DNA of 34,903 bases from a virus, in the IMG/VR virus record IMGVR_UViG_3300022187_000010. The stretch is one strand, 5' to 3'. The notes beneath the pieces are model-generated. The model did no database searches. It saw only the letters and a list, made by a program, of their open reading frames with translations, and was not told where the DNA came from. The stretch's first letter is position 1. The number at the start of each line of letters is the position of its first letter. This document shows, one piece after another, positions 7,505 to 27,656 of this stretch. The translations under genes and the position numbers were made by a program.

Positions 7505-9388
7505 TTATTGTTTCTCTATTAGTTCTTGCCTCCAGACGTGTCTGCAACTTGGTGATATTACACCGTCTCTATTCCAGAAGCCACCACGTCTTAACCATAC
7601 GTTATGCCCTACTATTGCGCTCATCTGGTCTATATCTTCTTTTGAATATACCCTACCTAAAGAAATTAAGCGTCTGCAAAAATCCCTACTTCCTGGTATA
7701 ATGTCTCCACCACTTGCACTTGCCCTCTTTACATATCTATAAACTATTTCAAAGTCTACTGTTGCTGCTTGCTTTTCACCCTCTTCTGTTAATTCTCTAG
7801 ATGGTTCTTCTGTGTCGCTTGGTATTTCATCAGGTATATCTATTTCCTTAACATCTATTAGCCCTTCGTTTGCTAATCTATTTAAGCTCTCTGCAACCGT
7901 TTTTAAGTCCGTATTCAAAGCCTCCGCTATACTATCTGCTGTGATGGTAGGATTGTTCTTTAAAACGCCTAATACTTGCTTATCAAAGTCCGTAACTTCA
8001 AAGTTCATTCTAAAAGAATCCTCATCTATGTTGACCTCGTCACCACTAAAATCTAACTCTTTTGAGTATTTACAATTTATCCCTTTAGCAGGTCTACCCA
8101 TTTTCTCTAGTAAACTAAATAGTAGTTCTTCTTCCTTGTCATCTTTAGACATTTGGGTAACCGTTTGTGTTACGGTTTCACTTTTAACCTCAAGTCCTGC
8201 CTTTTCTGCTAGTTGACTTAAATAATCAGAACCTAGTGCTGTTGCAATTTGTATAACCGCTGTCTCGCTAAATTGCTCTGTAATCGGATCAACTCTATCT
8301 AAGTAAACCGCATCCGTATTATATAGGTCTGATATAACACCGTTTAAGATTCTTTGACGTGAAGAAACGTAGGTACTTTGGAATACTTCCATCTTCTCTA
8401 CTATCTCCGTTCTATTCCCGAATGGTTGGTCTGTCTCAACTCCAAAAAGATTTGGCGATACCACACGATGACCCGTGAATATCATGTTTCTAGTCTGGTC
8501 TAGAAGTTGCATGAATTGCTTATCGAAGTTGTTAGGCATTAAAGATTCTACCCTTGTCTCACCCTCGCCCTCTTGTTGCCATTGCAATATAACTCCACCG
8601 CCTTGTTTAGCGTCTGTACCTTGAAACTTCTTAGCAAAGTCTTTCTCTATCTTTTTAGCTGTAGCGTCACCTGGATATTGACCACTAAAGATAATCATGT
8701 TCCCCGCTTGGAATCCGTTGTGCAAGTTGTTTAAGTGGTAGTCTGCAATTCTATAATCTATCTCAATATAAGGAACTGCACCCACGTACTCTGGTAACGT
8801 GTAGTGTTCTTTACCCGCTCTGTGCTGAACATGGTAGTATAATTGACTACCTTTTTTAGTTTCAGGATTATACTTAGCAAATGTCTTAAACCCTGCTTCT
8901 ATATCCTTGTCTGTGCCTTTGTAGTGCTTCGTCCAATCAGGTGAATAAGCAAACTCCTCACCGTCTTTAGATACTCTAATCTTACTAGCATCTACATGGT
9001 ATAAATCAAACTTGCCGTTAGGCTTCCATATAACCTCTAACGCTATGATATTAAATAACTCAAAGTCTAACGCTGCTTTCAACATGATACTTTCTAAGCC
9101 CTCATCTGGATTAGCCTTTTTTATCATGCCTTGTATTTCGGCTACGTCTTGGACATTCTTTACTTTAGCGTCATCTACTCTAAGCCCCTCTCCTGCGATA
9201 TAATGAACCTTACCAGTAATTATACTATTGTGGGTTGCTGAACGGTCATATAACTCAATTAAACGCTGTGGATACATATTGTCATGTCCGAACTGTACCC
9301 AGTCGCTATTCTTTAATTCCTTGAACTCTGGAATATCACAAGCATTTAACTGTATGAATATCGGCTTATTTTGATTTTCTTCACTCAT
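7505..9388 (-). CDS. Portal protein with a C-terminal extension (wHTH-like segment, acidic linker, Mu F/SPP1 gp7-like cysteine motif domain)
   Basis: 627 aa. The portal call for the first ~460 aa rests on size and module context only; I recognise no portal motif by eye. The last 165 aa (7505..8002) contain QVLGVLKNNPTITADSIAEALNTDLKTVAESLNRLANEGLI and SRDFCRRL..GRVY...SPSCRHVW. Confidence 0.6.
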   Translation of the reverse strand: MSEENQNKPIFIQLNACDIPEFKELKNSDWVQFGHDNMYPQRLIELYDRSATHNSIITGKVHYIAGEGLRVDDAKVKNVQDVAEIQGMIKKANPDEGLESIMLKAALDFELFNIIALEVIWKPNGKFDLYHVDASKIRVSKDGEEFAYSPDWTKHYKGTDKDIEAGFKTFAKYNPETKKGSQLYYHVQHRAGKEHYTLPEYVGAVPYIEIDYRIADYHLNNLHNGFQAGNMIIFSGQYPGDATAKKIEKDFAKKFQGTDAKQGGGVILQWQQEGEGETRVESLMPNNFDKQFMQLLDQTRNMIFTGHRVVSPNLFGVETDQPFGNRTEIVEKMEVFQSTYVSSRQRILNGVISDLYNTDAVYLDRVDPITEQFSETAVIQIATALGSDYLSQLAEKAGLEVKSETVTQTVTQMSKDDKEEELLFSLLEKMGRPAKGINCKYSKELDFSGDEVNIDEDSFRMNFEVTDFDKQVLGVLKNNPTITADSIAEALNTDLKTVAESLNRLANEGLIDVKEIDIPDEIPSDTEEPSRELTEEGEKQAATVDFEIVYRYVKRASASGGDIIPGSRDFCRRLISLGRVYSKEDIDQMSAIVGHNVWLRRGGFWNRDGVISPSCRHVWRQELIEKQ

Positions 9389-9771
9389 TATTCAGGTGTA
9401 TATTGAATATCTATATTGTTGTCTAAGGCTGTATAATCTACGTCACTTGAAGCTGTTGGATCTACAACTAAAACTCTACCACTTTCCACTATTTCATCTG
9501 CTAGACTAGGGTCTGTATTACTTGAACTTGTTTGAGCGTAGATAATGTACGTCCATTGTCCTGCATCTTTTAACTCTACGTCTGTACCCTCAACTATTGT
9601 AAAAAGATTGTATCTACTTACAGCGCATGACGTATCGGTAGATAAGAAGTTCTTAACTAGATTAGTCTGCACGTTTTTAAAAGAAAACAAGTAATAAGGG
9701 TTACTTATTGTCGTTTTCTCCGTTAGTGTCAGTGCTACCTTGTTGCTCTGTGTCTGGTAAATTAATATCAC
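9388..9771 (-). CDS. Hypothetical virion-module protein (GTG start, or expressed as a fusion with the upstream ORF)
   Basis: 127-aa ORF with no internal Met. The only canonical start is GTG at 9771, which lies 71 nt inside the upstream ORF. Confidence 0.55.
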   Translation of the reverse strand: MILIYQTQSNKVALTLTEKTTISNPYYLFSFKNVQTNLVKNFLSTDTSCAVSRYNLFTIVEGTDVELKDAGQWTYIIYAQTSSSNTDPSLADEIVESGRVLVVDPTASSDVDYTALDNNIDIQYTPE

Positions 9772-9955
9772 TCTTTTTTTTACGTCTTTTTGTTTTAGGG
9801 AATGTCATTTTTTTAGGCTCTGACTTAAAAATATGGTCCAAGCCATACGCTCGATAAGTTGCGTACATTTCGGGCTTATCTTCTATCGTAACAGTCTGTG
9901 TTATTCCCTTTTTACGAATAGTAATTGTTGCCCCTATCCACTTTTTATCTATCAT
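9701..9955 (-). CDS. Hypothetical basic-tailed protein (start re-set to ATG 9955, MIDKKW...)
   Basis: The ORF-track start at 9997 lies inside a terminator U-run, and the conserved promoter element occupies 9956..9987. ATG 9955 directly follows that element. Confidence 0.5.
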   Translation of the reverse strand: MIDKKWIGATITIRKKGITQTVTIEDKPEMYATYRAYGLDHIFKSEPKKMTFPKTKRRKKKSDINLPDTEQQGSTDTNGENDNK

Positions 9956-9987
9956 ATTAATAAATATAAATACTTGTTTTTGTAACA
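9956..9987 (-). promoter_or_regulatory. Conserved promoter-like element, copy B: TGTTAC-N13-TATATTTAT-TAAT
   Basis: One of four copies with identical 13-nt spacing. It lies immediately 3' of a strong terminator and abuts ATG 9955. Confidence 0.6.
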
Positions 9988-9997
9988 TATTGAACAT

Positions 9998-10021
9998 AAA
10001 AAAAGGGGCTTAATAGCCCCC
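9998..10021 (-). terminator. Rho-independent terminator after the capsid/tube-like gene pair
   Basis: Minus strand reads GGGGCT-ATTA-AGCCCC followed by TTTTTTT. Confidence 0.8.
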
Positions 10022-10043
10022 TTTAAACTAACTAAAAGATATA

Positions 10044-10559
10044 TTATAGAAGTCCGCTAATAATAGTACTGTCAACTTGTGGGGCTGGTAGTTTCTCTTT
10101 ACCTCCCATCTCAATAGTAAACCCGTTCATATCTTCTACCATTATTCCAGACTGATATGCAGTAGTACCTGTCATTTGAAGTCCACCGTCTGCACCTAGC
10201 ATATAGTACTCTCCAGCAAAGTTTTGAACTATGGCAATACCTGTTAATTTCGCTAATGCTAAAACTTCTGCTATCTCAGTAGTAGTTCGCTTATGCATCT
10301 TTAGTCTTAACAACTGCTCAAAAGCGATAGTACGGTTCTCAGTAGACCCTACGAAAGTCTCACCCCAGTCACTATCTTGATGCTGTACTTCGTACTGCTT
10401 GAATACAACCGAACTAGCCAACGTAATAGACGTTACTAATCCAGCAGCATTTTTAGCATATGCAGAAACATCGTCAAACTCTACTAAGTAAACAGTCTTT
10501 ACACCACCGCTTGACTTATTACAGTCTAAAGTATATCCGCTTAATGTTACACAACTCAT
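10044..10559 (-). CDS. Abundant virion protein, tail-tube-like (a decoration protein is the alternative)
   Basis: 171 aa, beta-rich (GGVKTVYLVEF...), immediately after the major capsid gene and bracketed by a stem-loop and a strong terminator. Function is not recognisable with certainty. Confidence 0.4.
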   Translation of the reverse strand: MSCVTLSGYTLDCNKSSGGVKTVYLVEFDDVSAYAKNAAGLVTSITLASSVVFKQYEVQHQDSDWGETFVGSTENRTIAFEQLLRLKMHKRTTTEIAEVLALAKLTGIAIVQNFAGEYYMLGADGGLQMTGTTAYQSGIMVEDMNGFTIEMGGKEKLPAPQVDSTIISGLL

Positions 10560-10576
10560 ATTAATTATTTTAAATA

Positions 10577-10600
10577 AGCAGAGGGAACTAACCCCCTGCT
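10577..10600 (-). terminator. Strong stem-loop between the capsid and tube-like genes (attenuator or mRNA stabiliser)
   Basis: Minus strand reads AGCAGGGGG-TTAGTT-CCCTCTGCT, a 9-bp stem with one G-U pair. It is followed by TATTTAAAAT, which is not a clean U-run. Confidence 0.4.
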
Positions 10601-10613
10601 ATTACTTCTTATC

Positions 10614-11531
10614 TTACTCTGCGTAGTAAACTACAAACTCAGGGAACGCAAACTGAACACCGATCTTAAATTCGATTTTAAGCTTATGGATGTCGTCATC
10701 TTCGCTAAACCATAGCTTCCAGCTCTCCTCTTCATTTTCTAGGTCAGTCCCGAGATACATATTCTCTCTGTAAGAGATAACGATTCTGTTCTGACCGTTC
10801 AAACCGTTAACTACTACGATAGGAATGTTAGTGTATAAAATCATACCGTCAATACCATCTTTAGGCTCTACCCATCTGTTATTAAGGTCAAATACCTCTT
10901 TTTGGTATTGATCAAACCAATCTCTACCCATGAAGCAAACTAAATCGTTTCTCTCTCTGATTGCTACTGGTACGTCTTTAGCTAATTGATAAAGTACAGT
11001 AATCTCGTTACCTGTAAATGCAGTACCACTAGATGAACGTACAGTAGTAGATGTGTCGTCAATCAACTTGTTAAACCCATCACATAAAGCTAAGTTACCT
11101 AACCCTGTGCTAGTATTTCCCTGCCAGATTAACTTCTCAACTTCAAAAGCCATGTTTGCCATTAAGTCGTCTAAGAAAATTTGCGGTAAGTCTGTTTCAT
11201 CATATGTAGAACCTGGAGTTAATAACTTCTGAGTGAATTTAGCCTCTAAAGACTTCATACAGTAGTTCTTATTTACCTTGATTTTACACACTGAAATAGT
11301 ACGTTGTGTGATAGTATCATCACCTGCTGCGAGAAAACCACAAGATCCACCCGCTTGGAAAGTAACTGTGCTATCTACTAAGTTAATTGTCTCTGCTGAT
11401 TTGATACCAGTTTGGATAGTAACATACTCCATTGTTCTCGCACCTGCTACCGCCTTTGCGATTAATTCCGCTGGCTCTTCTGTATAGTTGCCTAAAGCGG
11501 AAACGTCAAAATTAAAATCTAACTTTTTCAT
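10614..11531 (-). CDS. Major capsid protein (HK97-fold family)
   Basis: 305 aa. It follows the scaffold with a TAATG overlap and sits in the order protease-scaffold-capsid. Composition and length are typical. Confidence 0.7.
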   Translation of the reverse strand: MKKLDFNFDVSALGNYTEEPAELIAKAVAGARTMEYVTIQTGIKSAETINLVDSTVTFQAGGSCGFLAAGDDTITQRTISVCKIKVNKNYCMKSLEAKFTQKLLTPGSTYDETDLPQIFLDDLMANMAFEVEKLIWQGNTSTGLGNLALCDGFNKLIDDTSTTVRSSSGTAFTGNEITVLYQLAKDVPVAIRERNDLVCFMGRDWFDQYQKEVFDLNNRWVEPKDGIDGMILYTNIPIVVVNGLNGQNRIVISYRENMYLGTDLENEEESWKLWFSEDDDIHKLKIEFKIGVQFAFPEFVVYYAE

Positions 11532-12196
11532 TATTTTTTGTATTTTCTAAATGCTGCTTTGATTCCGTTCAAAGTGGCAACTTTGCCTACGCTAGTTTTT
11601 GGTGCTTGTGTTGGTTTGTCTGCGCTAAAATCCATAAGCACCTCGATAGCTTCTAGCACGTTGTTATTAAATTCTTTTGATTCGTTTTTGTAAGCATTGA
11701 ACTCAGATGCTAACTTTTCGTTTGCTTCTGTTAATTCTTTAATCTTACTTTCATACTCTTCTTTTGCTTCTGCAAATTTGCGCTCTACTTCTGTGCGCTC
11801 TATTACAGTTTTAGGAGATGGTACTGCTGCTGGTGTTGGCGTTTCTGCATCCATAACCTCTTCTGTCTCTACTTCACCCTCTGGCATGATAACCTCTGTG
11901 ATAAGTCCACCAACTGTTACGATAACTGTACCGTCAGCAAGTTCGTGACTAGCATCTTCTACTGGTACTATCTCACCATCTGCTGCAACTGTTACGGCTG
12001 CCCCAACTTCTACTGCTGGTTCAATCATAATAGGTGTACCATCTGAAAGAGTAGCATCAATAAATTTGCTTGTAGTTTCTTCTGTGGCTGGTGCTTCAAC
12101 GTCAGACATAGCAGAGTTAAATGCTTCTTTAAACTCCCCACGCTTATCAGCAGGAACGTCTAAGAACAATTCTTTAAGTCTGTCTTTAAAACCCAT
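11531..12196 (-). CDS. Scaffolding protein
   Basis: 221 aa, highly acidic, Ala/Glu/Val-rich, with a helical C-terminus. It lies between the protease and the capsid gene. Confidence 0.6.
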   Translation of the reverse strand: MGFKDRLKELFLDVPADKRGEFKEAFNSAMSDVEAPATEETTSKFIDATLSDGTPIMIEPAVEVGAAVTVAADGEIVPVEDASHELADGTVIVTVGGLITEVIMPEGEVETEEVMDAETPTPAAVPSPKTVIERTEVERKFAEAKEEYESKIKELTEANEKLASEFNAYKNESKEFNNNVLEAIEVLMDFSADKPTQAPKTSVGKVATLNGIKAAFRKYKK

Positions 12197-12216
12197 ATTA
12201 TTAATAATTTTTAGTT

Positions 12217-12248
12217 ACTAATAAATATAAGTTTGGAATGTTGTAACA
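12217..12248 (-). promoter_or_regulatory. Conserved promoter-like element, copy C: TGTTAC-N13-TATATTTAT-TAGT
   Basis: Same bipartite element and spacing as the other copies, 20 nt upstream of the scaffold ATG. Confidence 0.6.
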
Positions 12249-12262
12249 ATTTTGTATATTTG
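12232..12262 (+). promoter_or_regulatory. Plus-strand Bacteroidota-consensus promoter candidate: TTTG-N19-TATATTTG
   Basis: Exact match to the -33 TTTG / -7 TAnnTTTG pattern with a 19-nt spacer. It is arranged back-to-back and interleaved with minus-strand copy C. Confidence 0.35.
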
Positions 12263-12268
12263 AAGTGT

Positions 12269-12345
12269 TAAGGGAAGTGACAAAACCTTTAATGATGCAT
12301 TACGGAAGAGGGATAGCGAAGTATAGTAACTACCCTCTTTTTTTT
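12269..12345 (+). ncRNA. Candidate ~75-nt small RNA on the strand opposite to all genes
   Basis: Bounded by the plus-strand promoter candidate and a plus-sense stem-loop plus T8 terminator. Lies in a 147-nt intergenic gap. Confidence 0.3.
12306..12345 (+). terminator. Stem-loop followed by T8 in the plus sense (in the minus sense it is preceded by A8 and has no U-run)
   Basis: AAGAGGGATAG ... CTACCCTCTT, about 10 bp with one bulge, followed by TTTTTTTT. Overlaps the protease stop codon. Confidence 0.45.
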
Positions 12346-12943
12346 ATGCCTTAAACTCTGACTTAATGATACTTTTAATTTCCTTTAGTATCTTATCTTC
12401 TTTAGTCTCTTCTACTAAGACTTGGTCAAATAAACCTTCTACACTGAATCCTTTTAACTCACCTGTCTTAACGTAGTCATTCCAAAGTCTATCGTTGTCT
12501 ATTTTCATTACACCGTACCATGTACCCTCTGGGTTGTCAAAGCCTTTAGGGTCTGTTATTCCCATTTGTGAATCTGTTATAAAATCACTCACTAAGTAAA
12601 CGTCTGACATCTTCATCTCAGGATCGTGCATTAAGTTTACGTTCCTTTCAAAGCCCGACCTATGATACTTATAGTTGATTTGTCTAATGGTGTCTTTAGA
12701 GAAATATACGTAGAAGTCTCCACGCTCCTCTGAGTATCTGTATATCTTTAAGTCTGGAATCATTAAAGCCCCCATAACTAATCTGCGGTCTTTATCCGCT
12801 GTCTTGAAAACCATCTTAGGCTTCTCTTCATTGAACGCCATAAAGTTTTTCATAATTGCAGGGGTGTCAACTAATGCTATGTAATCTACACCACTTTCAT
12901 CATGGTCGTTAATTACTATCTCGTATACTTCTACCTTTTCCAT
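12344..12943 (-). CDS. XkdF-like phage serine protease (prohead protease candidate)
   Basis: 199 aa. DYIALVDTPAI, NLMHD and KGFSVEGLF match the XkdF-like domain pattern. It lies upstream of scaffold and capsid. Confidence 0.65.
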   Translation of the reverse strand: MEKVEVYEIVINDHDESGVDYIALVDTPAIMKNFMAFNEEKPKMVFKTADKDRRLVMGALMIPDLKIYRYSEERGDFYVYFSKDTIRQINYKYHRSGFERNVNLMHDPEMKMSDVYLVSDFITDSQMGITDPKGFDNPEGTWYGVMKIDNDRLWNDYVKTGELKGFSVEGLFDQVLVEETKEDKILKEIKSIIKSEFKA

Positions 12944-12975
12944 ACTTATAAATATAATATCGTGTTATTGTAACT
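12944..12975 (-). promoter_or_regulatory. Conserved promoter-like element, copy D: AGTTAC-N13-TATATTTAT-AAGT
   Basis: Same element and spacing as the other copies. It overlaps the stop of the upstream gene and abuts ATG 12943. Confidence 0.55.
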
Positions 12976-15205
12976 ACTCTACTACTGTTGCTTGTGATTG
13001 TATTTGGCTAATCCCTTGTTGGGTACTTGTTATATCGCTCTCTACTACTACCACTTTATTAACCTCTCTTTCTGGTTGTCCGTTGCCTATTAGTGTACTA
13101 CCGTTCTGTACTGCGTTAATAGGTACTCCTGCACCTGCTACTCCTCCACCAGCAGACGATGATAGGTTAGATACGTTAGGGCTTGGCCTTTTTAATAGTG
13201 CTGCTGCTTGTGCCATGTTGGCTAGTATAGTCGCTATACCGCTTGCAAACTGCGCTGCACCTGCGCCACCTACCGTAACAGCGTTTAATGGGTTTGCTTG
13301 TGATGCTGCTACCAATGCACTAATTGCTTTTGCTGTATCTATTGCTATCTGTGCTAGTGCAAATGCTTTTTGTATCTTTTCAGCTTTTTGACTATCCTTT
13401 ATTGCTATTTGAGTTAAACTAGATAAACCTGCTACTGTGCTTTCTGCTACACTTAACTTAGCATCTCTAGTGTCTTTCTCTAACTGTATATCTTTTAGCT
13501 TTTGATCTGTGTTTGCTGCATCCTCTTCATCTCTATACTTTTTGTTGATTGCTGCTAGTTCTTCTTTCTGAGCTTTCTCAAGTTCCGCAGTATCTAACCC
13601 GTATTGTTTAGCTATTTCTATTAACCTAAAATACTTATCTTGTACCTGTGTTATTTCCCTTTCTTCATTACTAAGACTTTTTTGGTACCTCTCTTCATCT
13701 AGTTGTTCTAGTTCATTCTGAAATTCTTGCTGTTGCTCTCGTTCTCTTTGCCTTCTTTCTCTTTCTCTTGCTAGTCTATCTTCTTCCTTTTTATTTTCCT
13801 TCTCTTCTTTTTTCTTTCTATCGTCTTCGGCTTTTTTGTCTGCAGCTTCTTTTGCTTTCCTTGCCTCTTCTGCTGCTCTTTTAGCTGCGTCATTACGCCT
13901 CTTGTCTTCCTTTATTTGGTTTAATTCTCTAGTCTGGGCGGCTTCCTTGCTCGCTTCCTCAACCTCGTCTAATTCCTTCTGCTTTTGATCTATTCTATAT
14001 TGAGAGACTTGTTGGTATGCATTAAACTCTTGTTTGCCATTTCGTGTCCAAATTTCAACTGATTGCCCAGCTGACTTTTCTAATTGCTCCTTCTCAAAAG
14101 CTATTTGATCTTGTAGTGCTTCTTTTTGCCTTGCAAGTGAATCTAATACATACCCTAGTTTCTCCTGCTCTACATCAAATGTAGCTTGACCTGCTGCTTG
14201 TAGTTTGGCTATCTCAAAATCATACGCATCACTTCTTGCTTGTCGCTTCTCTTGCTCTGCTTGTATAACGGCATCTGTTTTTTTACGCTCCTCTGCTACA
14301 ACTGCCTGTCTAGCCTTATCTGCTGCATCGGCTTGTGCTTTTGCTGCTCTCTCTGCTGCGCTTGGTATAAGCCCTAGATTTGCTGCTACTTCTTCTACTG
14401 CATCTGATACAAAATCAAAGGCATCTATTAACGGCTGTAGTATCGGCATTACCACCGACTTAATCTTATCACTAAAGGCAATAAATCCTGCTACTAGCAA
14501 TCCTATGGCTGTTACAATCAATCCAATAGGGTTGGCACTCATCGCCACGTTTAAAACCCTCTGCGCTACCGCTGCCTTATTAGTCCACAATGTTTTAGCC
14601 TTAGTTAAGGCTAACATCGCTTTCTCTTTAGCTTCTTTAGCAACAAGTACAAGGGTAGATTCTTTTTCTAAGTTTTTACGTATGGTTTCAATCCCTACTA
14701 ACGCTGCTTGTGCGCCTTGAAGTTTTACTAATGTCTGTTGTAACTCTTCATTCTCTACACCCATCATTGCAGTTATACCCTGAAAAGCTGTAAACCCACC
14801 TAATACAGAAGTACCTAAATCTAATGCTGCTTGGAGTTTATATCCATCATTCGCAAGTCGCTTAGTTTCGTTCTGAATATCTACATACCTATCTCTTAAT
14901 TGTGCAGCTTCTTGTAATGCTTTTTTACCTACTGGCGTATTTCTACCCGCTTCTAATGCTATCGCTTGATACTCTTGTATCTGTTGATTCATTTTACGGA
15001 CATTGATAGGGGCTTCTTTAACTGTTTTATTTAGTTGATTTAACCTTTGCTCAAATGACTGTTCACTTTTCTCTGCTTTCTTCGTTTCCTCGTTTAGTTC
15101 TTTCGTTTCTTTAGAAAGACTATCCATAGCCTGAGCCATTTCCTTTGCAGAAACTTGAGCCTGTTTAGTGTTAAAGTCTAATTCTATTCCTATCTTCTTA
15201 GCCAT
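12974..15205 (-). CDS. Tape-measure-like protein (long coiled coil with central TM segments and a Gly/Ala-rich C-terminus)
   Basis: 743 aa. Hydrophobic core NPIGLIVTAIGLLVAGFIAF, a K/E/R-rich coiled coil, and an Ala/Gly-rich tail. Confidence 0.55.
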   Translation of the reverse strand: MAKKIGIELDFNTKQAQVSAKEMAQAMDSLSKETKELNEETKKAEKSEQSFEQRLNQLNKTVKEAPINVRKMNQQIQEYQAIALEAGRNTPVGKKALQEAAQLRDRYVDIQNETKRLANDGYKLQAALDLGTSVLGGFTAFQGITAMMGVENEELQQTLVKLQGAQAALVGIETIRKNLEKESTLVLVAKEAKEKAMLALTKAKTLWTNKAAVAQRVLNVAMSANPIGLIVTAIGLLVAGFIAFSDKIKSVVMPILQPLIDAFDFVSDAVEEVAANLGLIPSAAERAAKAQADAADKARQAVVAEERKKTDAVIQAEQEKRQARSDAYDFEIAKLQAAGQATFDVEQEKLGYVLDSLARQKEALQDQIAFEKEQLEKSAGQSVEIWTRNGKQEFNAYQQVSQYRIDQKQKELDEVEEASKEAAQTRELNQIKEDKRRNDAAKRAAEEARKAKEAADKKAEDDRKKKEEKENKKEEDRLARERERRQREREQQQEFQNELEQLDEERYQKSLSNEEREITQVQDKYFRLIEIAKQYGLDTAELEKAQKEELAAINKKYRDEEDAANTDQKLKDIQLEKDTRDAKLSVAESTVAGLSSLTQIAIKDSQKAEKIQKAFALAQIAIDTAKAISALVAASQANPLNAVTVGGAGAAQFASGIATILANMAQAAALLKRPSPNVSNLSSSAGGGVAGAGVPINAVQNGSTLIGNGQPEREVNKVVVVESDITSTQQGISQIQSQATVVE

Positions 15206-15207
15206 AA

Positions 15208-18201
15208 TTAAGCTGTATATATTGAGTAATTAATAAGTATAGTCAAACTGCCATTACCAGTTCGAGGGTTTCCCGTATCTGTGTAAACTTTTAAAGCTGT
15301 GTTCGGGGGAAAGTTTGTTCCTGACCCTAAATAAGTAGGTTCTGCTTCTACGCTATAAGGTGCTGCGGTTGCTAGTATGCCATCTGCTGTGTATATTCGT
15401 GTGGAGTCGTCACCGAACGTAAACCTTACATTCGTGTTACTCGTATACGCTGTTGTTAAACCACCTTTAGATATAATTATCTTATTTGGTGAGATTATCT
15501 TCCCTGCTCCTGGTGCATCTATACAAGTTATTGGTGTGGTGTTTAATGAGAGTATTTGTGAGCTTGTTAAGTCTACCCTTGCCCATCTTGATCTATTTTC
15601 TAAATCTTCTTCTGCTATCTCTACACCATTGATATACGTTATACCACTTTCTAATATTTCAGCATTGTCAGTGTTTATTAAAGTTACATCAGTTAGACCA
15701 CCAGCAATAGTATTATTACTTCCGTTTACTTTTATGCGCTCAGCATCTGCACCAATTACATTGCCATCTCCAACCACATCTATACTACGAGCTGAATAAT
15801 GAACTGTATTGTCTTTACCGCTAACAGTTACATCATTTGCACGTTTATTATAGTTATTGTTGTTATAGTTAATAACTGTCTTTAATTTTGGTGGTGTATA
15901 CTCTTCAATGTCATCAGCACCACCTATTACTACACCCGTTGTAGCTACAAAGGGGCTTACATTCTTTAGTTTTAAAAATTCACACTTAGTCAAATCATTA
16001 GCATTAGCATTATAATCTATTACTTTGTTTAACCTCCAATATGCTTGTAAAAAGTAGTAATTATTTCTAAAGTCTAAATCATATACATCTTTTGGTGTAA
16101 GATTAAAATACCCACTAAATAGAATACTATTCTCGTTTGTTATCTCATCTATAAATTGCTTATGATACTCATTAAAGACATTTGCGTTAGTCCAATTAAG
16201 TGTAGTGTATGTATCATCATAATACACCTCCTTAACTACACCAAAGTTTAAATCAAAAGTAGGATTAAATGGATCGTCTAAGTGACCACAATAAGGGTAG
16301 TCTAAATGCGTTACACTTGTTGTAGCCGCAACGTGATTCCAGGATTGCCCAGTAATATTTCTAAGCCCATTATAGTAAAGTATTCTCATGTTAGCTGCAT
16401 AAGGCTTAATGCTGCCGTTACTATCTTGTTGAAAGATTCTAGGCATAACCATATCACTAAAGCCAGTATCTGCTACTGGTGTGGGACTAAATATAACTTC
16501 TGTTTTAATCTCATTTTTAACAAAGTCATTCTGTACGTCTTCAAAATGCTGACCGTATATCTCACCCCAAGATTCTATGTATTTTTGATTATAATAGTCT
16601 TTATCTTCCTTGTAGGTCCACAAGTAACGCCCTGCGTCTAAAGCACCCATTGGTGTAATCTCTTGCTCTCTATCAAATGCTAGTTTATCTGTACTATCAA
16701 AATCAACTTCTACACCGTTATCATAGAAATCATTACGTGGCTCTATAAAGTAGTTATTTTCATCGTTATTATCTTGCTCAACATATAAGTTAAACATCTT
16801 GATAATGCTGTTAAGTAAACTTTTAATTTCAATGTCAACAGGTAGTATGGTGTTCATATCTACTGTGCCACCTTCAACTAATCCAATATTGTTTATTTTA
16901 TTGTAGAATATAGAACCCGTCTTTACTTGAAAATATGCCTTACCACTATAATTAGTTACACCGTCTGTGAATAAAGTGGATGAGTCAAAAAGGTTTAGAT
17001 TAATCTGCGCCATCTCTATTGTTATTACATCTCCTTGTTGGCATAAGTGATTAACTACCGTAGGTGTAACTAAGTTTGCCCAATTCGGATCATAATTGTA
17101 ATTCCAAATATTATCAGGGTCTGGATTAGGTGCATTAGCACTTTCATAAGATGTAGTAAACGCTGGTATGTTACTTGTGTTTGCTCCAGCAGTGTAAAGT
17201 GCAATATATGAGCCGTTCTTTTTAATTCTCCATTGACAAGTTAATGAAGGTAAATTACAAGTAACAGATGCGGTAGTATCGGGAACTAATCTAATACCCA
17301 TAAATATTCTAGCACTAAATGTATAATATCCCGTATCAGGAACTGTGTAAGAATAAGTGACTACATTAAAGTTACCCCCGTTATCAAAGTTATTGCCGCT
17401 ACTATCATCATTAAATTCTATTGTAGCTAATGCACCAATACTGTTAAACTCTAATTCTTGTTTTGCGCTGTTACCAGCTTCAAATAACCTATCTTCTATC
17501 TGTTTGTTGGATAGTTCTAAACGCTCTCTGGTAAATGGGAATATTAACCTTTTAAATCTAGCTGAGTTAATAAATGAACTTTCGTAGGTGTAACCATAGG
17601 TGCTGAATATCTTATCCCATACTTCCTTAGCATATAAGGCAGGATACAACTCTGTTACTTTGTAGTCAACCTGATTAGCTGAATAACCATAATCAATTAA
17701 AGGATATACATAGCCATTACCATACTCAAATGCAACCGCAGAACTGTTTTGGATTATTGAAGTGTCCCAACTATTCTCTTGATTCTCTTTTGTGTACTCA
17801 TGGTTAAATTCGCTAAAGTCTAAAGATCCTAGCTTATCTTTACCTATGTCAAAAAATAGATTTGCTAAACTACCATAAATAACTACTTCATAACTAAACT
17901 TTCTAACTGCGCTTTGTTTGATTTTAGACAATCTAGCATAGCCATTAAACACTTCTACGCCATCTTGAATAACTAAACAACTTGCCTTAGTGTTTGCATT
18001 ATAACCACCACTTCTATTAACATTAAAAGCATGAGTAAATAGTTTATCATTTGTCTTAGTAGAGGGCAGTACAATAGTCTTACTAAATGACTGTTGACGT
18101 TTATCTGGCTCTCTTATATCTGCAATAGAATAATTAAGGGGGAAGTTAACGCCCTCTTCTGGCATATCTAGCAAAGTATTATCTATATAAATCTCTACCA
18201 T
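15208..18201 (-). CDS. Large tail or baseplate protein (candidate tail tip or receptor-binding protein)
   Basis: 997 aa, Asn/Thr/Tyr-rich. The C-terminal segment is beta-helix-like and repetitive (VTVSGKDNTV..VVGDGNVIG..VNGSNNTIAGG). Confidence 0.55.
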   Translation of the reverse strand: MVEIYIDNTLLDMPEEGVNFPLNYSIADIREPDKRQQSFSKTIVLPSTKTNDKLFTHAFNVNRSGGYNANTKASCLVIQDGVEVFNGYARLSKIKQSAVRKFSYEVVIYGSLANLFFDIGKDKLGSLDFSEFNHEYTKENQENSWDTSIIQNSSAVAFEYGNGYVYPLIDYGYSANQVDYKVTELYPALYAKEVWDKIFSTYGYTYESSFINSARFKRLIFPFTRERLELSNKQIEDRLFEAGNSAKQELEFNSIGALATIEFNDDSSGNNFDNGGNFNVVTYSYTVPDTGYYTFSARIFMGIRLVPDTTASVTCNLPSLTCQWRIKKNGSYIALYTAGANTSNIPAFTTSYESANAPNPDPDNIWNYNYDPNWANLVTPTVVNHLCQQGDVITIEMAQINLNLFDSSTLFTDGVTNYSGKAYFQVKTGSIFYNKINNIGLVEGGTVDMNTILPVDIEIKSLLNSIIKMFNLYVEQDNNDENNYFIEPRNDFYDNGVEVDFDSTDKLAFDREQEITPMGALDAGRYLWTYKEDKDYYNQKYIESWGEIYGQHFEDVQNDFVKNEIKTEVIFSPTPVADTGFSDMVMPRIFQQDSNGSIKPYAANMRILYYNGLRNITGQSWNHVAATTSVTHLDYPYCGHLDDPFNPTFDLNFGVVKEVYYDDTYTTLNWTNANVFNEYHKQFIDEITNENSILFSGYFNLTPKDVYDLDFRNNYYFLQAYWRLNKVIDYNANANDLTKCEFLKLKNVSPFVATTGVVIGGADDIEEYTPPKLKTVINYNNNNYNKRANDVTVSGKDNTVHYSARSIDVVGDGNVIGADAERIKVNGSNNTIAGGLTDVTLINTDNAEILESGITYINGVEIAEEDLENRSRWARVDLTSSQILSLNTTPITCIDAPGAGKIISPNKIIISKGGLTTAYTSNTNVRFTFGDDSTRIYTADGILATAAPYSVEAEPTYLGSGTNFPPNTALKVYTDTGNPRTGNGSLTILINYSIYTA

Positions 18202-19436
18202 TATCTTCTTTGTCTATAATTATTCCAAGCTAAGTTAACAGTCATTTCTAAGTTAAATGTCTTGTCAATTATGTTCTGCTTTTCTTCATAAGTATTGAGG
18301 TCGATATCTGCGACCGCAACCAATGTGCCATCTGGATATTCACAGTAGATTATAGGACTATCAAATAACTCTCTCAGCCAAATGCTCTCAGCTTCTGTTA
18401 TCCAGTTACTTGTTATTCTAATTGCTTTGTTAGTTTGTGTGTGATATGAGCGTCTTTGGTGTTTGGTTAAGTTTCTAGTCACTGCATCTTCTGAACGTGT
18501 ATAACCATGTGTCATGTAGTTAGATTGTTCTTTCGACCAGTTAATCTTATGAACTAAATCAAACGCAAAACTATCAAAACCACCAAGCTCGTTAATGAAA
18601 TGAAGTGTATATCTATCAAAACCAGTACACGTTAAATCCCTTGTGTATGTTCTTAGCTCACTTGTTCTTGTTATACCATTGTCAAACGTCTGCACGTCAT
18701 AAGAGGCTACATCTGCATCTAAGATAGGTAATGCACCACTATTTACAGTAACGCCCGTCACATCGTTTAAATTAGCACCTACTGGAAATCTAACATGGTT
18801 GTCTGTATAACTACCACCACCCCTATATGGATTGCTAAACAAAAATAGCCCGTTTAATGTACCCGTACTATCGTACGTTCTTACTCTTACTCTATCTAAA
18901 TATACTGTACTGTTATCGTTGTACATATAAAGCCATGCATTCATGTCGCTTGGGATTGTCCTATTAACTGGTGCGTTAGTTAAGAACTTGGTCAGTGCGC
19001 TTGAATTATTATAGTAGTCTGTATAATCAAATCCTATATAATCCTCATACTCTAAAGAACCATTAATAACTTCTAAAGTTTCTGATGTAGCAAGTCCGCT
19101 AAAATCTGTTATCACTCCGCTGACATCATATTGCTCTCCAAAGTCTACGTAAACCTCTGCAATTGAGTTAGGGTTATTTTTAATGCTGTCATCGTTTAAC
19201 GCTGTATCAAAGTCAAAGGTAAGGTAAGATTCTATAATACTTGCAATATCTATAAAGCCATTAGAGTAGTTAGGATCTGCTGGTGTAAGGTATCTATGTC
19301 TCTTAACACCGTTAACATAAACATCTGAAATAAACTTAAATGATGTCTCACTTGTATTGGTTGAACTAAGGACATAATCAATAGGATTATAAGCCGTAGC
19401 CATTCCAGTTACTTGTTGGTCTATTGTTATTGCCAT
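18201..19436 (-). CDS. Tail structural protein
   Basis: 411 aa, with TAATG coupling on both sides to virion genes. Confidence 0.5.
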   Translation of the reverse strand: MAITIDQQVTGMATAYNPIDYVLSSTNTSETSFKFISDVYVNGVKRHRYLTPADPNYSNGFIDIASIIESYLTFDFDTALNDDSIKNNPNSIAEVYVDFGEQYDVSGVITDFSGLATSETLEVINGSLEYEDYIGFDYTDYYNNSSALTKFLTNAPVNRTIPSDMNAWLYMYNDNSTVYLDRVRVRTYDSTGTLNGLFLFSNPYRGGGSYTDNHVRFPVGANLNDVTGVTVNSGALPILDADVASYDVQTFDNGITRTSELRTYTRDLTCTGFDRYTLHFINELGGFDSFAFDLVHKINWSKEQSNYMTHGYTRSEDAVTRNLTKHQRRSYHTQTNKAIRITSNWITEAESIWLRELFDSPIIYCEYPDGTLVAVADIDLNTYEEKQNIIDKTFNLEMTVNLAWNNYRQRR

Positions 19437-19969
19437 TACTTGTCGTATTGTTTTACTATTAACTCCGCTAGTTCATCTATTAATGATTGAACCTCTGGAG
19501 AATCTATTGTATTACTAGCCCACTTAGTAGCCTTAATACCTTTGTAGAATATTGACCGAGCAACTGCAAACGGGCTTATCCCTCTACTGTCTGCGTATTG
19601 CCTTAGTGATTGACCTCCTATTGTGCTTACGTTTGTAGGTGGCATCTTGTCAGTGTACGCAAAGTCTCTACCATATCCTAACTCGATTCCTAATGATTGC
19701 CCCGACTTAGTTCCTGCAACACCCGCGTCTTGATAACTACCATATTCTTCCCACTCAATCTCTAGCACATATCCGTTATCTGTTTCCTTAATAGGCAGAA
19801 CGGGTGCAATAGACTGCTGTAAATAACCGCTATTGTCTGGTGCGTTTCTTTGCAATGCTTGGACTAATCTGTTAGCCACCTCTTTAATAGATAGTTTAGC
19901 AGCATCGTTTATCTGTGCTGCTACCTCTCTTCCTAGTTCATTAAGCTGGTCTAATCCTTTAACCCCCAT
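19436..19969 (-). CDS. HK97 gp10-like neck or tail-completion protein
   Basis: 177 aa. The pattern RNAPDNSGYLQQSI ... YQDAG is typical of the gp10 family. Confidence 0.55.
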   Translation of the reverse strand: MGVKGLDQLNELGREVAAQINDAAKLSIKEVANRLVQALQRNAPDNSGYLQQSIAPVLPIKETDNGYVLEIEWEEYGSYQDAGVAGTKSGQSLGIELGYGRDFAYTDKMPPTNVSTIGGQSLRQYADSRGISPFAVARSIFYKGIKATKWASNTIDSPEVQSLIDELAELIVKQYDK

Positions 19970-19970
19970 T

Positions 19971-20002
19971 ATTAATAAATATAAAATAAGCGTTTTGTAA
20001 CA
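19971..20002 (-). promoter_or_regulatory. Conserved promoter-like element, copy A: TGTTAC-N13-TATATTTAT-TAAT
   Basis: Same element and spacing as the other copies. It lies directly 3' of a terminator and 1 nt before ATG 19969. Confidence 0.6.
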
Positions 20003-20006
20003 GCAT

Positions 20007-20037
20007 AAAAAAACCCCGCCAAACTAATGACGAGGGC
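20007..20037 (-). terminator. Intrinsic terminator candidate
   Basis: Minus strand reads CCCTCGTCA-loop-TTGGCGGGG (8 bp including G-U pairs and one bulge) followed by TTTTTTT. Confidence 0.55.
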
Positions 20038-20073
20038 ATTATAGATATGAAAGGCTTTACTTCTTTTTAACCA

Positions 20074-20430
20074 TTATTCATCGGCTTCTGGTATAGATAT
20101 TATCTCCACCTTAATTTTATCTGATGGAGGTAGTCGTGTATATCGTGTAGTTAATTCAGACTTTTCTCCGTTCTCATCTAAAAGCCACATAGAATGTTGG
20201 AAGAATCTCATATTCTCTGTGCTTAGTAAATCTTTTACGGGCATCTCCTTTAACATCCAATTCCTTTTCCATCCCCACGAATCAGAAATTATAGAAAACT
20301 CATGGTGGAGGTTGTCATGTGTTAAGTCATACGTAAACATATCTTCTGCGAAACAAGCAAAATTTGCGTACATATCCAATATGTTTAGGCGTTTAATTTC
20401 GTCGATTATTTTTTCAATATCTTCATTCAT
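20074..20430 (-). CDS. Hypothetical protein
   Basis: 118-aa ORF with an ATG start. Confidence 0.6.
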   Translation of the reverse strand: MNEDIEKIIDEIKRLNILDMYANFACFAEDMFTYDLTHDNLHHEFSIISDSWGWKRNWMLKEMPVKDLLSTENMRFFQHSMWLLDENGEKSELTTRYTRLPPSDKIKVEIISIPEADE

Positions 20431-20431
20431 G

Positions 20432-21153
20432 TTACTTCTTATTTAACTGTTGTTTAATTAACTTCTGTTTGTCTTTCTCTTGAGCTAAGATATTCAAAAA
20501 CTCTATAACTCCTAAATCTAAGTAGTAATTTCTTTTAGTGTAGTCGCCATTACATAGATTATCTAGGGTTGCTGCCCATCCATATCTTTCTGCATACCAT
20601 GCGCTGTCGCTGTCAACTCCTCCGCCATCTTTTCCAAATAGCTTGGTATATCTTCCAACAATGTCGCCCAAACTCTGCAAAAAAAAATCACGTTAGGATA
20701 GACATAAGCTACAGGCATATCTAACACCATTGCAAACTTGTCTTGATCTGTTAGGCGTTTCTTCCAGAACTTCCATCTAGGTGTAGTCTCTTCTGTTATA
20801 ACTCCCATTAAGATATTTAACCTTTGGATAAGTTCTAGTTCAGTTCCCTTGCTTAGTTCTGTGCCGTCTATAAACTGTTCTGCTTTTATTCTAGTAGCAT
20901 CTACGATAGGCTCGAATCTTCTACCCTTAAACTTGAATCTATACATACTGTCACCATCAGGTGCATTAAACGCCCATTCCTCTCTTTTAGCTAAGGCTCT
21001 TAGTTCCTGCATAGGTAACTGCATCAAATCATCGTACTTGTGCTTAGTTGCTATCTCTAGCACCTTTGCCATGCGTTTAACTGGATTAAGTTCTAGGTGT
21101 ATTACTTCTTGAATACGTATAAAGTCTCTAACTGTCTTGTCCTTCCAACTCAT
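20432..21153 (-). CDS. Predicted 240-aa trans-frame product: frame-0 residues 1-158 joined by a -1 shift at a U9 run to the downstream ORF
   Basis: ORFs 20563..21153 and 20432..20680 overlap by 118 nt. The downstream ORF has no ATG and begins exactly at the end of the TTTTTTTTT run. A -1 slip on T TTT TTT gives ...NVIFF-LQSLGDIVGRY.... Confidence 0.5.
20563..21153 (-). CDS. Frame-0 product (196 aa) of the two-frame gene; function unknown
   Basis: ATG start at 21153. The 38 residues after the U9 run look like out-of-frame sequence. Confidence 0.55.
   Translation of the reverse strand: MSWKDKTVRDFIRIQEVIHLELNPVKRMAKVLEIATKHKYDDLMQLPMQELRALAKREEWAFNAPDGDSMYRFKFKGRRFEPIVDATRIKAEQFIDGTELSKGTELELIQRLNILMGVITEETTPRWKFWKKRLTDQDKFAMVLDMPVAYVYPNVIFFCRVWATLLEDIPSYLEKMAEELTATAHGMQKDMDGQQP
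20679..20687 (-). other. U9 homopolymer slippery site (A9 on the plus strand)
   Basis: mRNA sense reads GTG ATT TTT TTT TGC. It contains the X XXY YYZ-type heptamer T TTT TTT and is long enough for RNA polymerase slippage. Confidence 0.55.
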
Positions 21154-21376
21154 ACTCTCTTAAATAAATATCTATCAAATCTTTTGTTTTCTCTAAGTCA
21201 ATATAGAACTCACCTTTGTGTCTACACCTTACTACTCGTTTAAGTATGTCAAACTCATAGGCATTCAATCCCCAATCTTCTGCAAACTTGTATAGGCTGT
21301 CTTTGCCTTTGTAGTGTGGTTGGGTGTTTGTTGTGACTTCGCATTCGTCCCTATCTGACCAATTCATATCTATCAT
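21128..21376 (-). CDS. DUF3310-family phage protein
   Basis: 82 aa. The pattern HYKGKDSLYKFAEDWGL..YEFDILKRVVRCRHKG...DLEKTKDLIDIYL matches DUF3310. Confidence 0.6.
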   Translation of the reverse strand: MIDMNWSDRDECEVTTNTQPHYKGKDSLYKFAEDWGLNAYEFDILKRVVRCRHKGEFYIDLEKTKDLIDIYLREYELEGQDS

Positions 21377-26629: not shown

Positions 26630-26904
26630 TATTGAGTGTATTTAATTGCTAATTTAACTACTAATATATTGATAAATAATAATATAAGCAAATTGTCGCT
26701 ATTGAAATTTAACCCTATTGTTACCCAAAAAGGAACGCAATGGTTACAATCTAATTTACCCGCTACAAACATTAAAGGCTTTATTCGCTTATCGCTTATC
26801 CTTATCTTGTCTGCATAGAAATAAGCCAAACTACTCAAGGGTGTCAGTAGCCATAGATAACTTATTATAGCTGGACTTAACAGCGTCTCTAAATCGTTTA
26901 ACAT
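26629..26904 (-). CDS. DUF1360-like membrane protein
   Basis: 91 aa. YADKIRISDKRIKPL...GKLDCNHCVPFWV resembles the DUF1360 signature. Overlaps the sigma-factor gene by 74 nt. Confidence 0.5.
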   Translation of the reverse strand: MLNDLETLLSPAIISYLWLLTPLSSLAYFYADKIRISDKRIKPLMFVAGKLDCNHCVPFWVTIGLNFNSDNLLILLFINILVVKLAIKYTQ

Positions 26905-27385
26905 ATCTGTAACAAGTTTGGTGATTAATTCCTAGTTCTTCTTCCATCTTTCTAAATGATCCAACGTCTAACCATATTCTAGTCATACGCTCATATAGCA
27001 TCTCCTCACTCTTCTTAGCATTAGCATAAGACTTATGGAAGATGTCCATTAGTTCATTATATAGTTCTATCTGTTGCTTAGACCTATCGTCTGTGTTTAT
27101 GTCTATGTATCTATCTACGTCTAACTGTTGACGCTTTCTAAACTTTACATAGAATGCTGACGTTGAGCTGCACCACATATTTTTAAGAATACGGTACGAG
27201 TATAACTCTAAAAGGTTCTTATTGATTAGGTCGTCTATGTTCTTTGGTGATGTCTCCAATAGAGTTAAAGCCCATTCTTGGTAGAGGTCGTCGGAAAAGT
27301 GAAGTTCATCTTTGCAGAACTTATAACACATTAAACGCCATTTATTGTCGTTTAAAATATCTAGAACCTCTTGTCGTATCTCCAT
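26831..27385 (-). CDS. Sigma-70-family (ECF-like) RNA polymerase sigma factor
   Basis: 184 aa. Region-2-like SDDLYQEWALTLLE...YSYRILKNMW and region-4 HTH SFRKMEEELGINHQTCYRYVKRFRDAV. Confidence 0.6.
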   Translation of the reverse strand: MEIRQEVLDILNDNKWRLMCYKFCKDELHFSDDLYQEWALTLLETSPKNIDDLINKNLLELYSYRILKNMWCSSTSAFYVKFRKRQQLDVDRYIDINTDDRSKQQIELYNELMDIFHKSYANAKKSEEMLYERMTRIWLDVGSFRKMEEELGINHQTCYRYVKRFRDAVKSSYNKLSMATDTLE

Positions 27386-27591: not shown

Positions 27592-27625
27592 TTTTAAGTA
27601 ATGGTAAAAACCACAAAAATCAATT

Positions 27626-27656
27626 CAAATATAATACTTATTTAATTAGTGTGCAA
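27626..27656 (-). promoter_or_regulatory. Host-type promoter candidate: TTG-N20-TATATTTG
   Basis: The -7 box TATATTTG has the extended match ATAAGTATTATnTTTG, shared with 33776..33791. It lies in a 274-nt gap. Confidence 0.5.

Follow-up and report, generated by a model that had tools for sequence, protein, structure and literature searches.

A conserved bipartite element in front of the virion genes of a siphophage, and a divergent phage sigma-like protein as its candidate reader

Introduction

Virus record IMGVR_UViG_3300022187_000010 of IMG/VR, a DNA of 34,903 nt that we analysed over its whole length (hereafter the window), carries four copies of a two-box element, GTTAC-N13-TATATTTAT. Each copy lies just upstream of a block of virion genes (tail, protease, capsid or portal). 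This arrangement raises the question of what the element does and which protein reads it. A sequence-only reading of the window had proposed that the copies form a phage-specific promoter class, and had pointed to a sigma-70-family protein encoded by the same phage as the factor that might act on them.

Control of late genes by a phage sigma factor is a classical mode of phage gene regulation, for which SPO1 and T4 are older examples; the present case would place it in a new phage group. Transcription control in phages of the Bacteroidota is almost undescribed, and literature searches on the promoters and sigma factors of phages that infect Bacteroidota, Flavobacterium and Cellulophaga turned up no described pair of phage sigma factor and promoter for this phylum. 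The housekeeping promoter of this phylum consists of a -33 TTTG and a -7 TAnnTTTG element (PMC6847099). In Flavobacterium johnsoniae the -7 element reads T-12 A-11 .. T-8 T-7 T-6 G-5, with a nearly invariant G-5 and 4-5 nt between the element and the start site (PMC6847099).

Here we describe the number, placement and conservation of the elements in the window and its relatives, the sigma-like protein that accompanies them, and the alternatives that have to be weighed. The elements are real and conserved, and judged by their sequence and its conservation they are almost certainly a class of late promoters. That these promoters are read by a divergent sigma factor of the phage itself is the explanation we favour, at somewhat better than even probability.

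Results

Four copies of a bipartite element precede the virion gene blocks

A search for GTTAC-N13-TATATTTAT returned four exact matches in the window (9960-9986, 12221-12247, 12948-12974 and 19975-20001). All four are on the minus strand, which is the coding strand of every open reading frame (ORF) in the window. No match occurred in 100 dinucleotide-preserving shuffles, so that four copies were observed where none was expected. When 5-mer/gap/6-mer dyads were counted without bias over the whole window, this motif was the only one present in four copies on the coding strand. Allowing up to two mismatches added no copy in the window, and looser versions of the motif gained nothing convincing there. 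The sequence-only reading had recorded four 32 nt copies with invariant boxes and an identical 13 nt spacing, had found no further full copies, and had called for a pattern scan against shuffled controls. Its sequences were read exactly as they stand, and the scans agree with it on copy number and on the contrast with shuffled DNA. The lone downstream box that it had noticed elsewhere is also present, as TATATTTAT at 21531-21523.

Within the four copies (termed A to D; Table 1), GTTACAA and TATATTTAT are invariant. The downstream box ends 4 nt from the ATG in copies B and D and 5 nt from it in copy A; in copy C the ATG of the scaffold gene lies 20 nt beyond the end of the 32 nt element. Copy D occupies the 30 nt gap between the stop codon of the tape-measure gene and the ATG of the protease gene, and the TAG stop overlaps its GTTAC box.

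Copies A and B had been placed directly after the two clearest terminators, and the hairpins found there (Table 1) are indeed the two best terminator-like hairpins within 9000-22000. These two copies had also been taken for duplicated terminator-promoter cassettes on account of a common flank. The shared sequence TTTTTTTATG is real, but it is mostly the T-run of the terminator and is not kept in relatives, and we rejected the duplicated cassette. A reading of the element as an RNA structure was likewise rejected: the RNA folds of the four element regions are no more stable than those of shuffled sequences (z +0.74 to -1.05) and have no structure in common.

The boxes are conserved at syntenic sites in related phages

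Relatives were retrieved from IMG/VR by protein-anchored searches. A scan of IMG/VR with the bare motif was uninformative, returning more than 120 unrelated contigs with one chance match each. The element recurs at the four corresponding, syntenic sites in contigs whose capsid proteins are 98-99% and 75% identical to that of the window or whose terminases are 97-98% and 80% identical. Copy D is conserved in relatives L121-L130, copy C in L121-L131 and copy B, with a diverged spacer, in L122-L131; copy A is retained in L158, L160 and L205 and, with another spacer, in L161. The 19 distinct instances all agree in GTTACA, TATATTTAT and a T-A dinucleotide 3 nt past the box, and differ in spacer and flanks. 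Four pairwise comparisons gave 60 identical positions out of 60 in the boxes and 21 out of 48 in the 12 nt spacers. The T-A dinucleotide is retained in copy C, where no ATG follows, and is therefore not a mere reflection of the start codon. This conservation footprint points to a bipartite protein-DNA site, in one orientation, in front of genes.

A 99%-capsid relative carries, on one contig (L121, 4090-4125), a degenerate copy B in which GTTAC has become ATTAA, together with a change of the adjacent ATG to CTG.

A more distant phage with 69% capsid identity (contig Ga0076919_1022396; L132, L248, L290) carries a coherent variant of the element, GTTAC-N14-AATATTTA, in five copies. Three of these are at the capsid-region sites and two are additional, and three of the five abut an ATG. 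At the copy B site of this phage (L132) there is no in-frame ATG upstream, so that the ATG directly after the box is the start codon. Between its protease and scaffold genes lie two reverse-strand ORFs of 140 and 120 aa (L132, 8232-9095, minus strand), and the element still adjoins the scaffold gene. Conservation in related phages, which the sequence-only reading had named as a check, was thus found in two forms: invariant boxes with drifting spacers at four syntenic sites, and a coherent N14 variant.

The motif is absent from capsid relatives at 32-38% identity (L133-L138). In three of these (L133, L134 and L137; 37% capsid identity, higher G+C), the sequence C(G/A)CTAAT occurs about 8-12 nt before several virion-gene ATGs, for example at 6356, 7422 and 13165 of L137. 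It may be a different late signal with the same layout, the promoter standing next to the ATG.

Counts, strand, placement, terminators, footprinting, the variant clade and the lack of RNA structure together support the earlier view that the elements are a phage-specific promoter class; each computational check that might have spoken against this view spoke for it. It is from these features that we infer promoter activity and late timing.

A sigma-like gene accompanies the motif

The factor proposed earlier to act on the elements is the product of ORF 26831-27385. The motif and this gene occur together in the window, in a 26.9 kb relative (contig 3300028883_000121; L125, L141) and in the N14-variant phage. 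The last of these might have turned out otherwise and so served as a test: the variant phage encodes, at the corresponding place in the gene order, a 178-aa ortholog (36% identity, E 6e-37). The co-distribution comprises few independent genomes. It bears out the proposal to the extent that the elements remain candidate targets of the phage sigma in the variant clade as well.

The motif and the protein also vary together. Clades bearing GTTACA share the helix-turn-helix LGINHQT(C/A)(Y/F)RYV..FR, which is about 65% identical between them as against 36% for the proteins overall. In the N14-variant clade, where the downstream box and the spacing have changed, the N-terminal domain of the sigma-like protein is more diverged and contains an 8-residue insertion. 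A gene of the sigma family is also found 2-3 kb upstream of the terminase in many phages with terminases at about 40% identity. The helix-turn-helix of these proteins reads TGIP..S, and every such phage contains a conserved pair of sites, (A/T)A(A/T)AC-N14/15-TATATTT(A/C)-N5/6-ATG. Across the family, these sequences are suggestive of a common downstream box and fusion to the ATG, combined with an upstream box that differs.

In this wider clade (L164-L203, L226, L229 and L232; for example L184 at 11181 and 15888), one of the two sites follows the terminase stop codon and the other precedes a gene of about 800-1200 aa. In distant sigma-bearing clades, a search for exact dyads turned up either nothing or repeats within coding sequence, such as TGCAA-N11-AAGTCA, which were rejected as promoters.

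The features that characterize a late promoter class read by a phage sigma factor are found here: a coding-strand motif over-represented before late (virion) genes; two boxes at a fixed distance with an unconstrained spacer, at orthologous sites; and a cognate sigma gene co-distributed with the motif, this last in few independent genomes. The putative link between the late elements and the phage sigma is well supported by these comparisons.

The candidate reader resembles extracytoplasmic function sigma factors

The sequence-only reading had described the 184-aa product of this ORF as a sigma-70-family protein encoded at the head of the late region. Its family assignment holds in part: profile and structure comparisons point to a divergent sigma factor of the extracytoplasmic function (ECF) type, but no Pfam or PHROG family recognizes the protein. 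Its placement of the gene does not hold. The gene lies 7.4 kb upstream of copy A, and glycosyltransferase, sulfotransferase and large terminase genes, none of them with the late motif, stand between.

The 184-aa protein does not reach the curated thresholds of Sigma70_r2 or Sigma70_r4 (Pfam) or of TIGR02937 (NCBIfam). TIGR02937, the sigma70-ECF model, nevertheless aligns with it over the full length (E 0.006; 16.1 bits against a cut-off of 42.9), and scores relatives of the protein with E-values down to 1.3e-6, still below the curated cut-off. Only five close homologues were found among 5.8 billion clustered proteins; a search of 1.84 billion representative proteins with a profile of these five brought in 579 relatives at E <= 1e-3. 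A Sigma70_r2 domain is recognizable in 11 of the 126 family members that were aligned, Sigma70_r4_2 in seven and Sigma70_r4 in two. The 126-sequence profile (A2) matches SigW over its full length (E 9.3e-5) and, more weakly, SigH and SigE. The five-sequence profile found nothing relevant in the PDB.

An AlphaFold model computed from the 126-sequence alignment reached a pLDDT of 91.2. It replaced a first model, from the five-sequence alignment, that was discarded with a pLDDT of 62 and insignificant Foldseek matches. Nearly all of the top 27 or so Foldseek matches of the later model in the PDB are ECF sigma factors (SigE, AlgU, SigH, SigL, SigW, RpoE and SigK), with 171-202 aligned columns, probabilities of up to 0.97 and whole-chain E-values of 0.03-1. 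Such weak whole-chain values are expected of two domains on a flexible linker. The sigma-4 domain alone superimposes on 3hug (SigL) and 2h27 (sigma-E region 4) with an rmsd of 2.3-2.7 A and target-normalized TM-scores of 0.63-0.73. The model has the architecture of an ECF sigma factor, in which helical sigma-2 and sigma-4 domains are joined by a short linker and regions 1.1 and 3 are lacking.

Beside the profile homology, a DLxQE-like motif typical of region 2.2 is present. At least 90% of the 126 family members retain D33 and L34 of this DLYQE stretch, which corresponds to region 2.2, the core-binding region. Because the protein shows both the architecture and the profile relationships of the ECF family, although it fails the curated thresholds, we consider it likely to be a divergent ECF-like sigma factor.

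A 566-aa protein (P0026; L235, 9944-11547) fuses a sigma-like domain to a downstream glycosyltransferase-like region, and in a Bacteroidetes metagenome-assembled genome (MAG) the sigma-like gene is followed directly by a glycosyltransferase-like gene; in the window, a glycosyltransferase gene lies about 1 kb downstream of the sigma gene. The MAG gene was the only sigma relative found in a scan of a genome collection, and no informative motif was found in that MAG.

Host-type promoters are confined to the early and middle regions

The host of the phage is probably a Bacteroidota (Flavobacteriia-like) bacterium. This assignment is based on the rarity of Shine-Dalgarno sequences (a Shine-Dalgarno-like core in 2 of 44 genes of the window), the dominance of A at -3 and at -12 (33 of 44 genes each), a G+C content of about 36%, the sigma relative in the Bacteroidetes MAG and the presence of host-type promoters. 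A pattern scan of the coding strand of the window for TTG-N18/20-TA(H)(H)TTTG found such promoters only at 33804-33776 and upstream of the sigma gene (Table 1). Besides the TATATTTG box of the latter (27633), which corresponds to the host-type -7 element, further TATATTTG boxes lie at 26555 and 24744. All are in the early and middle regions of the window. Given the promoter upstream of it, the sigma gene would be transcribed by the host holoenzyme. The 274 nt gap before this gene (27386-27659, minus strand) holds, after the promoter, a strong terminator-like hairpin of 12 pairs (27466-27437), which may delay or attenuate expression of the sigma gene.

The downstream box of the late elements is one base apart from the phage's own host-type boxes, at the last position. 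At this position the four copies and the 22 distinct instances found in relatives all have A, and none has G. A pattern scan for a TTG 17-21 nt upstream of the -7 TA found none at any of the four late elements. The late elements have neither of the features of a Bacteroidota sigma-A promoter, the final G of the -7 box and the upstream TTG, in agreement with the earlier remark that the downstream box resembles the host -7 element but ends in A and that the upstream box is not of the host type. It follows that the host holoenzyme should read the late sites, with a TATATTTA box that lacks the G and no TTG at -33, poorly.

One host-type TATATTTG box (24751-24744, minus strand) lies 5 nt from the ATG (24731) of a 247-aa gene. 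Fusion of promoter and ATG thus recurs in this genome outside the late class, which differs from this host-type promoter by the change of G to A and by the GTTACA box. On the strand opposite copy C, a host-type-like match, TTG-N19-TATATTTG, occurs at 12233-12262 (plus strand); it is kept in some relatives and not in all, and about 0.8 such matches per strand are expected by chance.

Predicted start sites

At ECF promoters, position -1 is preferably a pyrimidine and +1 a purine, with A as the starting base of leaderless mRNAs (PMC7776599). This preference, together with the host rule of 4-5 nt from box to start (PMC6847099), places +1 on the A of the invariant T-A. The predicted start is then the A of the ATG in copies B and D and 1 nt before the ATG in copy A; copy C would give a leader of about 20 nt. 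This geometry predicts leaderless or almost leaderless mRNAs from three of the four late elements. The sequence-only reading had made the same prediction, and it fits both the host spacing and the invariant T-A at the predicted -1/+1.

Gene neighbourhood of the elements

The two ends of the window are an exact 127 nt direct repeat (1-127 and 34777-34903), which indicates a complete, circularly assembled genome of about 34.8 kb (about 34,776 bp); the source genome is that of a siphophage. Megablast of 12 kb against 50,697 GenBank phage records found no DNA relatives, and tblastn of the capsid and sigma proteins against the same records found no protein relatives. There is accordingly no cultured relative among them and no annotation to borrow.

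Functions of the replication type (a C5 methylase, a Toprim primase and a NinG-like protein) are encoded from about 34.7 to 27.6 kb. Copy A is followed by an HK97-gp10-like tail-completion protein (HK97-gp10_like match), large tail proteins and a tape-measure protein assigned with PHROGs. Copy D is followed by a prohead protease of the XkdF type (Peptidase_S78_2, E 2.9e-13), copy C by scaffold, major capsid protein and a 171-aa protein, and copy B by an 84-aa protein and the portal. The 627-aa portal-like protein (7505-9388, minus strand) has a weak Phage_portal match and a C-terminal winged helix at residues 467-511 (HTH_24, E 7e-8); a winged-helix DNA-binding domain in a portal protein is unusual.

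Table 1. Positions of the late elements, the sigma-like gene and neighbouring control signals in the window.
Feature	Coordinates	Strand	ATG	Remarks
Copy A, TGTTACA-N12-TATATTTAT-TAAT	19971..20002	minus	19969	Exact match; heads the neck/tail-completion gene and the tail module down to 12974
Copy D	12944..12975	minus	12943	Exact match; heads the protease gene
Copy C	12217..12248	minus	12196	Exact match; would drive the scaffold, major capsid and 171-aa genes; the sole leadered copy
Copy B	9956..9987	minus	9955	Exact match; heads the 84-aa gene, portal, and downstream virion and lysis genes
184-aa divergent ECF-like sigma, proposed reader of the motif	26831..27385	minus		Remote profile and structure evidence
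Host-type promoter TTG-N20-TATATTTG	27626..27656	minus		Upstream of the sigma gene
Intrinsic terminator (8 bp stem, T7 tail)	20014..20035	minus		Directly upstream of copy A; ends the terminase-region transcript
Intrinsic terminator (10 bp stem, T-run)	10001..10024	minus		Directly upstream of copy B; ends the capsid operon

Downstream of the sigma gene lies a 150-aa ORF (25889-26341, minus strand) with no Pfam match. Its positional counterpart in relative L290, a 154-aa protein (4044-4508), has a recorded Terminase_2 (small terminase) assignment, so that the 150-aa ORF may encode the small terminase subunit (TerS), its orthology resting on gene order.

The 166 nt gap between the terminase stop codon and an 82-aa gene contains a match to the Rfam cis-regulatory DUF805b RNA (RF02914) at 21491-21523 (minus strand), with 38.3 bits against a gathering score of 35.6 (E 1.5e-7). 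The match starts at the last base of the lone TATATTTAT box, and a host-like TAATTTTG box lies just upstream of that box, at 21552-21545.

Discussion

A model for late transcription

We propose the following order of events. The early and middle genes, including that of the 184-aa ECF-like sigma, would be transcribed by the host holoenzyme from host-type promoters (TTG-N18/20-TAnnTTTG). The phage sigma would then join the host core RNA polymerase. Its sigma-4 helix-turn-helix would read GTTACA, its sigma-2 domain would read and melt the A/T-rich TATATTTAT box, and transcription would begin at the conserved T(-1)A(+1), about 5 nt past TATATTTA. The A that replaces the near-invariant G of the host element, together with the missing TTG at -33, would keep the host sigma off the late sites until the phage sigma accumulates.

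Several observations weigh against this model. If the ATG supplies +1 with its A, GTTACA occupies -31 to -26, about 4 bp nearer than a canonical -35 element, and only 12 bp separate GTTACA from TATATT, so that the boxes are close. The ECF register comprises a 7 bp -35 element, a 15-18 bp spacer and a 5 bp -10 element (PMC7776599). The late elements conform to it only when ATTTA or TTTAT serves as the -10 element; the spacer then measures 15-16 bp, at the lower end of that range. The downstream box is a single base away from the host -7 element, which leaves room for host sigma with an activator. The covariation of motif and protein involves few independent clades, and in the wider clade coding sequence extends over some of the upstream boxes. 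Finally, the evidence that the protein is a sigma factor is remote or below threshold (no Pfam match, 16 against 42.9 bits for TIGR02937, Foldseek E-values of 0.03-1).

The tight geometry leaves a place for a rival model in which the host sigma is assisted by a factor bound around -30, as it is at the middle promoters of T4. Sigma-A would read the elements as weakened host -7 boxes, and a phage activator would bind GTTACA (centre -28/-29) and replace the -33 contact; the activator could be an early protein of no known function or the sigma-like protein itself. This arrangement would explain why the downstream box departs from the TATATTTG boxes at 27633, 26555 and 24744 at the last base only. 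The 12 bp between GTTACA and TATATT also fit the roughly 12 bp geometry of a -30 activator better than the 16-17 bp of -35/-10 spacing, and several early proteins belong to no recognizable family. On the other side, the near-invariant G of the host (PMC6847099) is missing in every one of more than 20 distinct instances, and no MotA-like, AsiA-like or other activator Pfam family was detected among the early proteins scanned. What the phage does have is a protein with a sigma fold, which occurs together with the motif and whose helix-turn-helix changes along with the upstream box. We regard this appropriation of the host sigma as unlikely, if still worth carrying along. Considerably less probable is a reading in which infection induces an alternative sigma of the host (ECF or other) that acts on a mimic motif, the phage sigma-like protein doing something else. 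Bacteroidota encode many ECF sigmas, and the AC that closes the upstream box recalls the AAC of ECF -35 elements. The motif varies coherently (N13/N14, TATATTTAT/AATATTTA) with the sigma orthologs of the phages themselves, which is what a phage-borne reader would predict.

The element might also have nothing to do with promoters, and serve instead as the operator of a repressor, as an A/U-rich context for translation initiation with A at -3, as a site of RNA processing or as a structured leader. We consider this family of explanations very improbable. Three copies do abut an ATG, as an initiation context would, and A at -3 is general in the genome; copy C, however, keeps both boxes and the T-A at 20 nt from its ATG. 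A GTTACA box held at constant distance across a spacer that varies freely is typical of a bipartite protein-binding site in DNA, the four regions fold like shuffled sequence, and two copies stand directly after terminators, where transcription must restart for the downstream genes. A phage RNA polymerase as the reader was rejected, since the window contains no candidate ORF; its large ORFs encode tape-measure and tail proteins. Recognition of the late elements by the phage-encoded sigma is the explanation that we retain as the most likely.

Implications

We infer a broader picture only tentatively. It falls a little short of an even chance that a large family of phage ECF-like sigma factors, missed by curated databases, directs late transcription in Bacteroidota siphophages, with leaderless virion mRNAs and co-evolution between the sigma-4 domain and the upstream box. 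If it is true, the late promoters of this family are compact sequences, xxAC-N13-15-TATATTT(A/C), fused directly to start codons. Leaderless virion mRNAs would then be unusual for a phylum without Shine-Dalgarno sequences, one member of which, F. johnsoniae, has leaders of more than 10 nt on 87% of its predicted transcripts (PMC6847099), and would offer a natural test case for leaderless translation there. A late-promoter consensus with its candidate sigma would provide a handle for annotating the timing of expression in the many uncultured marine and environmental flavophage genomes. The pair is also a candidate for an orthogonal sigma/promoter system in genetic tools for Bacteroidota, whose promoters are incompatible with Escherichia coli parts. 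In addition, a sizeable family of putative phage sigma factors escapes the current thresholds of Pfam, PHROG and NCBIfam.

Comparison with known systems

Middle promoters of T4 combine a MotA box at -30 with a sigma-70 -10 element, with AsiA taking part, in a geometry of about 12 bp. The late elements resemble them in having an upstream box nearer than -35 and a near-host downstream element, and the 12 bp between GTTACA and TATATT fit, but the downstream box does not have the G required of a host element. No relatives of MotA or AsiA were detected among the early proteins scanned, although divergent analogues may exist, and a sigma-like protein is found instead.

Cellular ECF (group 4) sigmas such as SigW, SigE/RpoE, AlgU, SigH and SigL share with the phage protein the sigma-2/sigma-4 architecture and a size of about 180 aa. 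A full-length profile match to SigW and an upstream box that ends in AC, like the AAC of ECF -35 elements, are further similarities. The phage protein differs in scoring below every curated threshold and in having no recognized anti-sigma gene next to it, and the late -10-like box is A/T-rich rather than of the CGT type, with a spacer at or below the short edge of the ECF range. The Bacteroidota housekeeping promoter has a TAnnTTT box at the same likely distance from the start, and true host-type versions serve the early genes of the phage. The late box, in contrast, ends in A (C in some wider-clade sites) and not in G, and the late sites have no TTG at -33 but an invariant GTTACA about 4-5 bp closer in.

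Two phage systems are nearer in kind. The sigma factor gp36 of phiEco32, related to the 7-11 system described next, acts on a single promoter element, tAATGTAtA (PMC8948821). Both there and in our model, a phage sigma redirects the host core polymerase to an A/T-rich, -10-like element before virion genes. Promoters of phiEco32 lack a -35-type box and gp36 lacks region 4, unlike the second invariant box and the modelled sigma-4 domain found here.

By analogy, the closest validated counterpart is Salmonella phage 7-11, whose divergent sigma gp47 (SaPh711_gp47) directs the host polymerase to eight late promoters, GTAAtg-N16-aCTA (PMC8948821). The host of 7-11 belongs to the Proteobacteria and not to the Bacteroidota, the boxes differ, and the spacer is 16 bp rather than the 12-13 bp between conserved blocks here. 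Starts in 7-11 lie 6-9 bp from the promoter element, and the elements are not reported to be fused to start codons. Both cases nevertheless combine a highly divergent phage sigma, a bipartite consensus with a fixed spacer that is repeated before late genes (about eight copies in 7-11), and early promoters of the host type, and on this comparison the elements of the window would be the same kind of system.

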